DNA of 64,000 nucleotides from Clostridia bacterium (GCA_045545475.1 JAZQAZ010000017.1:11973-75972), one strand, 5' to 3'; positions 13,884 through 28,115 are shown, counted from the first letter of the stretch. Notes: generated from the sequence alone by a model not told the origin. Translations and numbers: made by a program.

Positions 13884-14222
13884 ATGAATATACAAATTTT
13901 CGGAAAAAGTAAATGCTTTGATACTAAAAAAGCGGAACGATATTTCAAGGAACGAAGGATAAAATATCAGCTTATTGACCTTCCTGAATACGGAATGAGT
14001 AAGGGCGAATACAATTCGGTTAAAAATGCCGTGGGTGGCATGGAGGCTTTAATTGATAAGGATGGAAAGGCTTACAAGGATTTGTATATAGAATATACCC
14101 GTCCTTCCGATGTGGAGGCAAAGCTTCTTGAAAATCCGGTGCTTTTCAAAACACCTATTGTCAGAAACGGTAAAGCTGCAACGGTTGGCTACCAGCCAGA
14201 TATATGGAAAACCTGGGAATAA
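13884..14222 (+). CDS. ArsC/Spx-family thioredoxin-fold protein
   Basis: IFGKSKCFDTKKAERYFKER, LLENP.LFKTPIVR. Confidence 0.8.
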   Translation: MNIQIFGKSKCFDTKKAERYFKERRIKYQLIDLPEYGMSKGEYNSVKNAVGGMEALIDKDGKAYKDLYIEYTRPSDVEAKLLENPVLFKTPIVRNGKAATVGYQPDIWKTWE

Positions 14223-14232
14223 TAAGTTATAT

Positions 14233-14264
14233 AAAAATCCTGAAACGAAAGTTTCAGGATTTTT
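14233..14264. terminator. Bidirectional terminator
   Basis: AAAAATCCTGAAAC-GAAA-GTTTCAGGATTTTT. Confidence 0.85.
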
Positions 14265-14385
14265 GTTATATTCTGCTTTATTCGCAGAGTTATATTTTTG
14301 ATAAATCAAAAACGATATTTTATCAGCAGTAGACTAATAAAGCTGAATGGAGTTCATTTGAATTCCATTCAAAACACCCCAACAC
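14233..14385 (-). ncRNA. Candidate ~150-nt structured RNA
   Basis: Minus-strand TTGACA-18-TATGAT (TGn) promoter at 14419-14390; several hairpins; ends in the 14233-14264 terminator; only tiny ORFs. Confidence 0.35.
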
Positions 14386-14493
14386 ATTAATCATAACACA
14401 AAAGACTATGCTTTGTCAATAAAAATATGTTCAAATTTACCATATTCTCCGTTTTATACAAAAATAAATTGTGAACTTTTAACAGTTTGCCTA

Positions 14494-14522
14494 TTGAAAT
14501 AGCTACTTTTTCATGCTATAAT
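14494..14522 (+). promoter_or_regulatory. SigA promoter with extended -10
   Basis: TTGAAA-17-TATAAT preceded by TGc. Confidence 0.8.
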
Positions 14523-14528
14523 AAACTC

Positions 14529-14965
14529 ACAAAGAAGAAAGAGAGGTAAGGTCCAATGAGATAGTAAGAAAGCTCTTTTAAGAAGGTACAATTTAATAGT
14601 GAAGGTTAAAAATAATTCAATGTAAGTAAGTTGGTTAATTTATTGGTAGGAAAATAAACAGTAAAGAAGGAATTTGCTAAGAAGAATTGAAGACACGGCG
14701 GTGTGATACGCTTTATATATAAGTGATTGTTAATCGGCCAGGAAACCTTCATTAAGAGAGCTATCGGAAATTCGCCTTTTGCAAAACGACAAAACATAAA
14801 TCCATCCCGTTGGGGAAGTGAAAGAGTGAGTAGTTTTGGAAGAATTGAATGAGCAAAGGGCAGATTAAGAAAGCGAGGATTAAAAAAGATGTTAGATATC
14901 AAGAGTGAACAGAAATAACCCTTGGTCTTGCGTAAAGAAGCATGATCAGGGGTTATTTCTATTTT
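14529..14965 (+). ncRNA. Candidate ~440-nt structured RNA with 5' RBS and Met-Arg-stop mini-ORF
   Basis: Promoter upstream, terminator at 14911-14965, long-range stems, no sizeable sense ORF. Confidence 0.5.
14911..14965 (+). terminator. Long terminator hairpin
   Basis: AGAAATAACCCTTGGTCTTGC/GCATGATCAGGGGTTATTTCT followed by ATTTT. Confidence 0.7.
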
Positions 14966-15009
14966 AAAGAAAAATCGCAACTTTGTCCTGTAACCGCAAT
15001 ATTTTCATG

Positions 15010-15085
15010 TTGAAAAAAATCCCTATATATGGTAAGATTAAAGTGGCAAAGATACATTGACATTAAATAGGGCAAAAGCTATAAT
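15010..15085 (+). promoter_or_regulatory. Tandem SigA promoters for the nitrilase-GDPD/GH43/GH35 operon
   Basis: TTGAAA-17-TAAGAT (15010-15038) and TTGACA-17-TATAAT (15057-15085). Confidence 0.75.
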
Positions 15086-15104
15086 AATTCCGGAGGTGAT
15101 TTTA

Positions 15105-16697
15105 ATGAAAGTTTGCGTTATACAACCTTTGTATCCTACAGATTATTCAAGATCTGACGAAATGTTTTTATGGGAAATGGAAGCTATGGATAAATGTGAC
15201 GGAAGTATGGATTTAATCGTGCTACCGGAATCTACCGACGTTCCTTGCTTCGCAAAAACAAGAGAAATGGCTCTTGAAAGCTATAAAAAATTTAACAGAA
15301 AACTTATCGAAAAAGCATCAGAAACTGCGAAAAGATGCAATGCGGTACTTTTTATAAATGCATATAAGGAGGTAGAAACCGGTCTCCGTAATACTACCTA
15401 CGCTTTCGACAGAGAAGGCAAAATTGCAGGATATTATTTCAAGCAGCATTTGACACCCGGCGAAACAAGCGAAAGAAAGCTTGACAGCGACTATACCTTT
15501 GAATTTTCCGATACCGACATTATCACAATCGACGGTGTACGTTATGCATTTTTAACCTGTTACGACTTTTATTTTTATGAGGCGTTTGCGAAAATCGCAC
15601 TTGCACGCCCCGATATAATAATAGGATGCTCCCATCAGCGTTCCGATACGCACGAGGCACTTTCCATTATGTCAAAGTTCCTTGCTTATAATACCAACGC
15701 TTATGTGGTTCGTTCTTCCGTTTCCATGAATGAAGAAAGCACCATCGGTGGCGGAAGTATGGTGGTGTCACCGAAGGGAGAAATGCTTCTCAATATGGGA
15801 AGCAGGGTTGGTATGGAGTGCGTAGAAATCAATCCCGAAGAAAAATATTATAAGCCAGGAGGTTTCGGAAACCCCGACATGGCTCATTTTGAATATATAG
15901 AAAAGGGACGCCGTCCCTGGAAATACCGTCCTGCGGGAAGTGCAATCGTAAAGCACGATGCTCTAATGCCATATCCCAGAATCTGTGCACACCGTGGATT
16001 TAACACTATAGCACCCGAAAACAGTATGCCTGCCTTTGGTGCGGCCATCGCCTTGGGTGCCGAAGAGATAGAGTTTGACCTTTGGTACACAAAGGACGGG
16101 GAAGTGGTATCGATTCACGATCCCGATCTTGACAGGGTGTCTGATGGTACTGGCAAGGTTTATGACCATACATATGAAGAGCTTTTAGCCTACGATTTCG
16201 GAATAAAATATTCCGAGGAATTTAAAGGACTTAAGATAATCAAATTTGAAGAAATTCTTGAAAAGTTTGCCTGCCACGTAATTATGAATATTCATATTAA
16301 AAGCGTGGACAATGTAAATCCTCTGCCTGAGGAACATCTTAAAAAGATAATTGACCTTATAGATAAATATGACTGTGCGAAATACTCCTACTTTATGACG
16401 GGTAATGATGCGGTTCTTTCTCAGCTCAAGACTCTGGCACCCGATATATGCCGTTGCTGCGGCGGAGGGGATGCACCTTTAGAAATGGTTGAGCGCGGAT
16501 TAAAATACGGCTGTAAGAAAATTCAGCTTGTAAACTGGGCATTTAATAAGGAAATGATTGATAAAGCCCACGAGAATGGAATGCGATGCACGATTTTCTG
16601 GGCAGATGAAACAGAGCAGGCGAAAAAATATCTTGATATGGGTGTTGACGTAATTTTAACCAACGACTATCAGAGAATATCGCAGGTTATAAAGTGA
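15105..16697 (+). CDS. Carbon-nitrogen hydrolase (nitrilase fold) fused to glycerophosphodiester phosphodiesterase
   Basis: N-half LPES, YFKQHL, LTCYD (E-K-C triad); C-half AHRG, PENS, EIEFD, IHD, ILTND. Confidence 0.85.
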   Translation: MKVCVIQPLYPTDYSRSDEMFLWEMEAMDKCDGSMDLIVLPESTDVPCFAKTREMALESYKKFNRKLIEKASETAKRCNAVLFINAYKEVETGLRNTTYAFDREGKIAGYYFKQHLTPGETSERKLDSDYTFEFSDTDIITIDGVRYAFLTCYDFYFYEAFAKIALARPDIIIGCSHQRSDTHEALSIMSKFLAYNTNAYVVRSSVSMNEESTIGGGSMVVSPKGEMLLNMGSRVGMECVEINPEEKYYKPGGFGNPDMAHFEYIEKGRRPWKYRPAGSAIVKHDALMPYPRICAHRGFNTIAPENSMPAFGAAIALGAEEIEFDLWYTKDGEVVSIHDPDLDRVSDGTGKVYDHTYEELLAYDFGIKYSEEFKGLKIIKFEEILEKFACHVIMNIHIKSVDNVNPLPEEHLKKIIDLIDKYDCAKYSYFMTGNDAVLSQLKTLAPDICRCCGGGDAPLEMVERGLKYGCKKIQLVNWAFNKEMIDKAHENGMRCTIFWADETEQAKKYLDMGVDVILTNDYQRISQVIK

Positions 16698-27767: not shown

Positions 27768-28115
27768 GTCGGTCCATGTGGGCCACTGTTTTTGTGTGCG
27801 TTTTTGGGGCACATGAAGACAGACTACCGATGAAGCAGGAGGTTGCGGCAATGCCGGTTTTCCTGCCGAGGGAGTCCGATTCAGAGAAACCGGGCGAAAG
27901 CGCAAATGCTTTGCACAGAGTGGCATAAGTAAGAAGGGAAAGTGTGGAAACCTTCTGAAAGTGCGGATCCCGGCAAGCATGCCGGGAATTATAGTTGGGG
28001 TGGATGAAACACCCGGGCGAGTGTAAGGCGAGTTCTTCTGAGTCTCCTTGGGGTATATAATAATGAAGTAATGCCCTTAACCCAAAGCAAATAAAATAAG
28101 GAGGCGATTTTACTC
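27768..28115 (+). promoter_or_regulatory. Long structured rpsJ (S10) leader
   Basis: ~350 nt GC-richer 5' UTR with several hairpins and CGATGAAGCAGGAGGTTGC, resembling Firmicute S10 leaders. Confidence 0.65.

Follow-up and report, generated by a model that had tools for sequence, protein, structure and literature searches.

Ribosome-mediated 5' stabilizers of Firmicute mRNAs include the ermC leader and STAB-SD; natural minigenes, ORFs of 2-3 codons behind a Shine-Dalgarno (SD) sequence, include the lambda bar minigenes; and dual-function sRNAs with a small ORF are exemplified by RNAIII/hld, SR1/SR1P and SgrS/SgrT. On the B. subtilis hbs mRNA, ribosomes initiating at a strong SD are reported to block RNase J1 (PMC5737220). 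The mccA RNA of the microcin C operon is described as short, highly abundant and ribosome-stabilized; it ends at an intrinsic terminator and is called "exceptionally stable" in its ribosome-bound form (PMC4231749). Its ORF has just seven codons, and the figure given in PMC6495379 is ~71 rounds of translation per binding event. The same source reports that reiteration falls from 71 to 30 to 6 rounds as the ORF grows from 7 to 11 to 15 codons, cites earlier work in which ORFs of 2-8 codons were translated reiteratively without ribosome release, and states that the microcin C precursor requires a C-terminal asparagine (PMC6495379).

How does the present locus compare? The window, the whole 64,000-nt stretch of Clostridia DNA that was analyzed, holds a stand-alone RNA gene of ~440 nt (14529-14969, + strand) that starts with a 2-3-codon ORF and ends with a nine-codon ORF. 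Across the family to which it belongs, three things stay invariant: the strong promoter, the strong terminator and, on frames of 2-9 codons, perfect ribosome-binding sites. What lies in the middle is a fold, a set of extra mini-ORF modules or almost nothing. The best explanation, which we favor tentatively and would place a little below an even chance, is a ribosome-stabilized micro-mRNA that mass-produces a conserved peptide of 8-10 residues with the consensus M-L-D-I-K-x-E-x-x. An earlier note on this DNA found a real, unusual gene and read its 5' half well; it overlooked the tiny ORF at the 3' end as the core.

The transcription unit and its flanks

The features of the unit and of the region upstream are collected in Table 1. 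A check of the sequence found in place every feature that the earlier note had listed: the promoter, ribosome-binding site, mini-ORF, helices and hairpin.

Table 1. Positions of features, counted from the first letter of the window
Feature	Position	Strand	Remark
GC-containing hairpin, then U-rich run	14344..14370	-	would terminate a tiny divergent transcript
Divergent promoter TTGACA-18 nt-TG-n-TATGAT	14390..14419	-	scan score 11/12 with TG; predicted start ~14383
Conserved upstream promoter region, two blocks just 5' of -35	14445..14493	+	alignment of 82 non-redundant upstream regions
SigA-type promoter TTGAAA-17 nt-TG-n-TATAAT	14494..14522	+	TTGAAA 14494-14499, TG 14514-15, TATAAT 14517-14522; scan score 11/12 with TG; predicted start ~14529
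5' module: strong SD GAGAGGT (14541-14547), 8-nt spacer, ATG AGA TAG TAA (14556-14567)	14541..14567	+	
P1 5' arm	14571..14587	+	starts 3 nt after the second stop codon
Small hairpin ACAC-GGCG-GUGU in P1 domain	14693..14704	+	98% of cells paired; one compensatory change
P1 3' arm	14745..14762	+	pairs with 14571..14587
P2 5' arm GCCTTTTGC	14774..14782	+	9 pairs with 14853..14861, one G-U
Small conserved hairpin in P2 domain	14804..14817	+	88% paired; 3 pairs with compensatory change
P2 3' arm GCAAAGGGC	14853..14861	+	7 nt separate its end from the purine-rich SD of the main ORF
SD of conserved ORF GAAAGCGAGG	14869..14878	+	10 nt before ATG
ORF MLDIKSEQK + stop	14889..14918	+	last sense codon and stop in terminator 5' arm
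Intrinsic terminator: hairpin 14911-14960, then T-rich tail	14911..14969	+	covarying helix

Taken by itself, a promoter-like site could be due to chance, since the scan found 7 sites in total and 5.8 are expected in shuffles. The reality of the unit is settled by conservation and by RNA data, because its parts recur in relatives, its helices covary (the terminator helix holds the bulk of 16 pairs with compensatory changes) and RNA contigs are confined to the predicted transcript. Three runs recorded as RNA (X16 and X18 from one study, X20 from another) were mapped on 14100-15400. Their contigs cover bins 14540-14935 only; the flanks (14100-14539 and 14936-15400, which take in parts of the neighbor genes) have zero cover in all three runs, with a sole exception in X18 (depth 1.7, bin 14496-14539), whereas a DNA run (X1) covers 30/30 bins, flanks included. 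One X16 contig (record 9; 330 nt, depth 233) spans 14575-14904 and shows a single difference; X18 pieces that show 0-2 differences range in depth from 222 to 1035. Over 14848-14935 depths add up to very high values, as much as 135,372 in X18, contig depth being a poor guide to expression; many contigs from other organisms have only the conserved 3' module in common with the window, and their loose ends begin at 14883-14889. Contig starts range from 14496 to 14575, and contigs stop within the terminator hairpin, with none extending past it. Contigs cannot fix exact transcript ends, and the pattern of cover fits a transcript that runs from ~14529 to the terminator hairpin. That the element is an independent, unannotated transcription unit, as the earlier note had proposed, is thus borne out by RNA-library contigs from two studies.

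Could the locus be what is left of a protein-coding gene, or could its minus strand carry a genuine one? Purines make up 63% of the unit's sense strand, on which no stop-free frame is longer than 41 aa; as a by-product of this composition, a 124-aa frame is open on the minus strand (14606-14980). This frame was rejected as a gene since 5.8 billion proteins include no match other than the frame itself and since relatives have not retained it, their longest minus-strand frame being 71 aa (G004) or 57 aa (G009); it also belongs to no Pfam family. Conservation along the unit is modular (promoter, SD-ORF modules, helices), not codon-periodic. A degraded gene, the alternative that the earlier note had named, is therefore scarcely credible.

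Conservation extends upstream of the unit. In the upstream-region alignment, ~170 nt 5' of the start are conserved in the family, and the two blocks next to the -35 element are possibly a regulator site or an UP-like element. Further upstream, 62 of the 82 non-redundant relatives have a divergent site that scores at least 10/13, and its distance to the mini-ORF is mostly the same. Its predicted product would be only ~50 nt long, reaching down to the hairpin and U-rich run; at this position, a hairpin preceded by an A-run (read on the + strand) recurs across the family. RNA contigs give no cover over 14276-14407, which is uninformative since a ~50-nt product would not assemble.

Distribution and genomic context

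A 482-nt query matches 5 of 11 other species of the genus and has no match in the other 29 genomes searched (2 from the same family and 27 from elsewhere in the class). The six sequences align as two conserved modules that flank a diverging middle. The reach of the 3' end is much wider: an invariant 25-mer has exact matches in at least 120 MAG contigs (one genome per species), and in these genomes the rest of the sequence has diverged. Labels among the matches listed are Oscillospiraceae, Acutalibacteraceae, Faecousia, Fimenecus, Flemingiibacterium, Monoglobaceae, Ruminococcus and unclassified Clostridia, from animal guts; among the same matches, two copies are present in each of two MAGs. With up to 3 mismatches allowed, 15 of 401 genomes drawn evenly from the class have the 25-mer (8 of 217 genera), as do 9 of 22 genomes of one other family. 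As seen in these sequence searches, the distribution is wide but patchy, which would make the product dispensable.

In the window organism's own genome the element is single-copy. A cultured carrier is available: in the complete RefSeq genome of Vescimonas fastidiosa MM35, the element lies, unannotated, on an 861-kb replicon (NZ_AP023416.1, ~65.2-65.7 kb), between a TetR gene and spoVAC. This replicon is the sole match in the plasmid collection, and no record of the phage collection has the element; nothing thus points to a mobile carrier.

Has the family been described before? Rfam 15, searched with the whole window at the gathering score, returns only an S10 leader located elsewhere in the window; at E values up to 10, the interval 14300-15150 gives only spurious hairpin matches far below gathering; and at the loci of 18 relatives no family overlaps the element. 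The peptide string and a 21-mer nucleotide string are absent from the ~8.4 million papers of the searchable literature, and a search of the gut metatranscriptome ncRNA literature found nothing relevant. Within Rfam 15 and the searchable literature, the family appears to be undescribed. The supplementary tables of human-microbiome catalogues of small proteins and structured RNAs, such as those of Sberro 2019 and of Fremin and Bhatt 2021, may already include it.

The same architecture was seen in 25 of 25 loci inspected by eye, and the surroundings vary. Clustering of flanking ORFs finds no neighbor family in more than 18 of ~126 loci; by Pfam, the commonest neighbors are MatE, ABC exporter, GH32, AraC, GH43 and thioredoxin. 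Of 104 loci, 57 have their nearest downstream ORF on the same strand and 47 on the opposite one; for the nearest upstream ORF the split is 59 versus 44. Because neighbors are not conserved and their orientation is near-random, the element is ruled out as a leader or attenuator of a particular gene; the earlier note, in doubting that it is just the leader of the next operon, was right.

In the window itself, the next gene is a CN-hydrolase/GDPD fusion, with GH43 and GH35 genes also downstream, and a leader peptide could attenuate read-through into them. Such an attenuator would account for a short ORF that ends inside a terminator stem, and it draws some support from the same-strand orientation of the next gene and from some relatives in which genes of efflux type (MatE, ABC exporter) lie close by. 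The reading was rejected on the orientation of downstream ORFs, 47 of 104 being opposite. It is also hard to reconcile with the lack of any neighbor family beyond 18 loci; with the next gene's own promoters at 15057-15085 (12/12) and 15010-15038 (9/12); with the RNA-library contigs, none of which crosses 14936; and with the ortholog of the downstream gene in one relative (G006), which has no element upstream and instead follows a different gene after a 43-nt spacer. We consider attenuation very unlikely.

Short reading frames and the structured spacer

At the 5' end, a mini-ORF with a strong SD is conserved in 108 of the 119 loci with enough sequence, nearly always as Met-X-X-stop; this feature of the earlier note thus recurs in relatives, as do the covarying helices. 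The form of the module is constant: a very strong SD (~12 nt downstream of the predicted start in the window), a spacer of 7-9 nt with CC-purine at its end, ATG, 1-2 sense codons and a stop. The commonest peptides are MYR (32), MNR (10) and MYK (9). Most of these loci have one module (89), 17 have two and 2 have three; tandem modules are in most cases 44-59 nt apart. At one locus (L147), three tandem mini-ORFs run straight into the 3' ORF with almost no structured middle.

At the 3' end lies the best-conserved element of the family, the MLDIKSEQK ORF, which the earlier note had mentioned as one of several incidental tiny ORFs; the substitution pattern is instead that of a translated peptide. 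Its module has the form GAAAG-n-GAGG, with an SD-ATG spacer of 10-11 nt in 103 of 118 loci, which is on the long side of bacterial optima. Among fourteen variant genomes used for coding analysis, 7 of 9 codon changes at codons 2-5 and 7 (L, D, I, K and E) are synonymous (ATT three times, AAA twice, CTA and GAG; the other two replace I by T and E by D); synonymous changes are expected to make up 15.6% of single-base changes, giving P ~6e-5 with relatedness ignored. Codon 6 has changed six times, always with a change of amino acid (S to N or I), and codon 8 three times, again always with a change (Q to H, R or G). In two genomes of one genus the ATG has become ACG and a new in-frame ATG has appeared one codon upstream (MTLDIK...); in V. 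fastidiosa the ORF starts with ATG ATG.

The stop codon lies inside the 5' arm of the terminator hairpin in 119 of 119 non-redundant loci: codon 10 is TGA in 57, TAA in 51 and TAG in 10, and the remaining locus stops at codon 9. TGG is never found at codon 10, against ~4.8 expected, although two variable bases covary with the opposite arm of the stem. The last sense codon is AAA in 74 loci, AAG in 36 and AAT in 1, the rest being GAG, AGA, ATT, GAA and one TAG, so that the C-terminal residue is Lys in 110 of the 119 loci and Asn in 1. This codon is free (K, E, R, I or N) and covaries with the stem, and codons 6 and 8 change amino acid; the conserved peptide is therefore M-L-D-I-K-x-E. Judged by its substitutions, the nine-codon ORF looks translated and under purifying selection at the peptide level. 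The earlier description of the unit as an "ORF-less" ncRNA therefore holds only in part, since the 3' ORF is conserved and looks translated.

Between the two ORFs, the spacer ranges from ~30 to ~400 nt and its subfamilies cannot be aligned with each other. In the subfamily of the window, two long-range helices, P1 and P2, are separated by a few bases. P1 has an RNAduplex energy of -25.8 kcal/mol in the window (z -6.0 versus shuffles). It was assessed in the 18 of 25 aligned relatives that have the anchors, by pairing 40 nt after the stop with 50 nt before the next conserved block: z is below -2 in 17 of 18 loci (median -5.0), while the sequences of the arms are quite different between loci. 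In 13 of the 18, no more than 8 nt lie between the mini-ORF stop and the start of P1, so the earlier observation that the first helix starts just past the stop codon holds in most of them. In P2, 86.7% of 225 cells are paired, versus 35-52% with the partner slid; compensatory change is seen at 5 of the 9 pairs, and both sides have changed in 19 cells, a count reached by 0 of 500 shuffles. Both helices proposed in the earlier note are thus conserved with compensatory changes. Two small hairpins covary as well (Table 1); the one in the P1 domain belongs to the CACGGCGGTG..ACGC..ATATAGAT block. Across all subfamilies, the spacers between the ORFs are more stable than shuffles (median z -2.8; 59 of 86 below -2).

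Might the RNA itself be the effector? In a regulatory or dual-function RNA, the invariant single-stranded 25-mer or the P1/P2 domain would bind a protein or a target RNA, and the tiny ORFs would merely recruit end-protecting ribosomes. The conservation of the 25-mer, identical in at least 120 species-level genomes in spite of the diverged remainder, is what such a role would lead one to expect: at the nucleotide level it goes far beyond the apparent need of a nine-residue peptide, and this excess leaves room for an RNA-level function. The 25-mer is mostly unpaired in predicted folds, with the SD of the 3' ORF apparently accessible, and 25 single-sequence folds give it no consistent intramolecular partner; RNAalifold pairs CAC with GUG, both of which are invariant and hence uninformative. 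Paired with the GUGUUUU block, the A-rich 5' side of the CACGGCGG block has a median z of -1.2 (7 of 25 below -2) and one compensatory case (L046). The covariation of P1, P2 and the two small hairpins and the stability of the spacers would also fit an RNA effector. Against it, the synonymous bias, the compensating new ATG and the obligatory stop all point to the peptide; the 45-nt 3' module, searched with blastn-short against the own genome, yields only chance-level matches (E >= 0.28); and the structured middle, unalignable between subfamilies, is absent or very short in some members (L147 and L065). Because some members are almost devoid of a structured middle, an ncRNA fold is not the universal functional core. 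We regard an RNA effector as unlikely, although it deserves to be kept in mind. For the earlier proposal of an ncRNA that loads ribosomes on a dipeptide ORF, this means that protection by ribosome loading remains a good reading of the 5' end, whereas the ncRNA fold as a universal core fails at the L147 locus.

Alternatively, the RNA may sense the state of translation. The nascent MLDIKxE would stall in the exit tunnel near the stop, or a ribosome would be handed from the mini-ORF across P1/P2 to the 3' ORF, and in either case ribosomes, by occupying the RNA, would decide what becomes of it or how it folds. Conservation over only ~7 residues suits a nascent-chain role; short arrest peptides are found in the erm and cat leaders. 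Three positional features are also in keeping with sensing: (i) the stop always falls within the 5' arm of the terminator; (ii) in 13 of 18 loci, a ribosome at the mini-ORF stop would cover the start of P1; and (iii) P2 ends 7 nt before the 3' SD. The resulting geometry resembles the short ORF, stem and landing site described for the plant pararetrovirus shunt (PMC2241666). However, no regulated gene lies downstream (104 loci), and hand-over would be unneeded for a 3' ORF that has its own strong and apparently accessible SD. Nor are the spacers compacted, with 19.5 exterior unpaired nt versus 18.8 in shuffles and a lower value in only 40 of 86; and no consistent antiterminator partner for the 3' module was found in consensus or single-sequence folds. 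A sensor of this kind is improbable in our view. To a broader idea, that the element is a new kind of ribosome-engaging RNA, we give a similarly small chance: an array of perfect ribosome-binding sites on 2-9-codon frames, in which MLDIKxE and the mini-ORF/P1 junction make ribosome occupancy, not the free peptide, the signal. Such an RNA could report on the state of translation, or it could be a prokaryotic analog of the short-ORF-dependent hand-over of ribosomes across a folded domain.

A candidate micro-mRNA and its known counterparts

If the element is a micro-mRNA, how would it work? We infer from its sequence both translation and stabilization, with the 5' mini-ORFs as putative ribosome-parking stabilizers. 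A ribosome would initiate on the very strong SD of the 2-3-codon ORF, whose start lies ~27 nt from the 5' end; so short a frame may be re-translated without release, and the ribosome would stay parked there. The parked ribosome would block 5'-to-3' decay, for which the genome encodes an RNase J homolog (PF17770, 109 bits, the C-terminal domain in a 568-aa open frame). P1 and P2, or elsewhere further tandem mini-ORF modules (~44-59-nt spacing), would minimize naked RNA between ribosome sites, and a second ribosome would reiteratively translate the nine-codon frame beside the 3' hairpin. The outcome would be a very stable RNA and a large output of peptide. As for the product, conserved-neighbor analysis of ~126 loci finds no adjacent genes for its modification or export. 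A hydrophilic peptide of nine residues without a partner gene has no obvious activity.

Should the micro-mRNA reading hold, the element would be among the shortest conserved stand-alone genes known (8-10 codons), invisible to gene callers. It is among the well-covered RNAs of animal gut metatranscriptomes and is spread over several families of gut Clostridia. It would offer a natural system for ribosome parking and reiterative micro-ORF translation in Firmicutes and a portable, naturally optimized RNA-stabilizing cassette, along with a conserved peptide. The cultured carrier, V. fastidiosa MM35, makes the reading directly testable.

By analogy, the closest described system is the mccA RNA. Both have a very short ORF with a strong SD and an intrinsic terminator directly after it, the ORF being of a length within the reiterative range, and both are abundant short RNAs, as judged for the gut Clostridia element by RNA contig cover. 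They differ in the C-terminal residue, which is variable here (Lys in 110 of 119 loci, Asn in 1 of 119), and in context: the element has no adjacent MccB-like (adenylating), export or immunity genes and no operon behind its terminator. A microcin C precursor was accordingly rejected as its identity (C-terminus other than Asn, no MccB-like or export gene adjacent). The 5' mini-ORFs and the structured spacer are features of this family, and we know of none in mccA.

Dual-function sRNAs are likewise stand-alone transcripts of a few hundred bases, with their own promoter and terminator, conserved structure and a small frame. The element differs in its much shorter frame (9 codons) and is unrelated to them by sequence or Rfam, and a search of the own genome for base-pairing targets gave only chance-level matches. 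With the plant pararetrovirus shunt, as described in PMC2241666, the element shares a 5'-proximal short ORF that ends a few bases before a stable structure, with the next frame just behind. The likeness is geometric only: the shunt is eukaryotic and scanning-based, while here the downstream frame has its own SD and the spacer is as compact as shuffles.

Stabilizers of the hbs type (PMC5737220; reviewed in PMC3997798) are described as placing a very strong SD near the 5' end in an RNase J host, as is the case here. In the present family, unlike in those stabilizers, a start, 1-2 sense codons and a stop always follow the SD, two or three modules can stand in tandem, and the module heads no normal protein gene. 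Finally, the axe-txe minigene (PMC8708949) is reported to share the 2-3-codon ORF behind an SD and to act via the handling of ribosomes or peptidyl-tRNA. Natural minigenes lie in operons or phage regions and act on neighbors or tRNA pools; here, by contrast, they head an independent conserved RNA.

Upstream region and divergent promoter

On the opposite strand, a near-consensus promoter lies back to back with the σA-type promoter of the stand-alone RNA element, and two conserved blocks directly precede the -35 hexamer of the latter. The divergent promoter keeps its position in most members of the element family (relatives' loci L004-L124), and its predicted product is just UGUUGGG followed by a GC hairpin and a U-run, ~30-60 nt in all; among family members, the stem of this hairpin is kept while its sequence varies. 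What could such a unit do? Candidate roles are (i) production of a tiny RNA; (ii) insulation; and (iii) supercoiling coupling to the main promoter. In the alignment of 82 non-redundant upstream regions, one conserved block is of the TTCT-n-CGTTTT type and the other follows the pattern TTGT-n-AAC TTT-n-TACAA, which makes an imperfect inverted repeat; they look like a putative regulator site common to the family.

Features near the element and elsewhere in the window
Feature	Position	Strand	Basis
Divergent near-consensus promoter and predicted short transcript	14333-14419	-	also examined in relatives L004-L124
Two conserved blocks directly 5' of the -35 hexamer	14445-14493		upstream-region alignment
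S10-Clostridia ribosomal protein leader	27822-27899	+	Rfam RF03136, 40.6 bits

Tandem modules and paralogues

In some members (loci L147, on G351:C13, L066 and L060), the mini-ORF module occurs three times in tandem at a spacing of ~48-57 nt; L147 has three copies of an MFR-stop frame, which run straight into the 3' ORF without a structured spacer. The element is single-copy in the window's own genome. Two MAGs each have two different copies on separate contigs (L008/L033 and L043/L050), so the family includes paralogues.

Neighboring genes and RNAs

Efflux-type genes adjoin the element in ~30 of ~126 relatives' loci: MatE lies upstream in 18, an ABC exporter downstream in 18, and both are present in 6. 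In other loci, the window included (13884-14222), thioredoxin or ArsC/Spx-like genes lie upstream. Because many of these loci are related, such neighbors may reflect lineage synteny instead of a functional link.

Copies of Gut-1 RNA (RF01706) and tRNA genes lie ≤1-2 kb from the element in two relatives, at loci L041 (5720-5901) and L085 (6213-6282), with no overlap. In the whole window, the sole Rfam match at gathering score is the S10-Clostridia leader.
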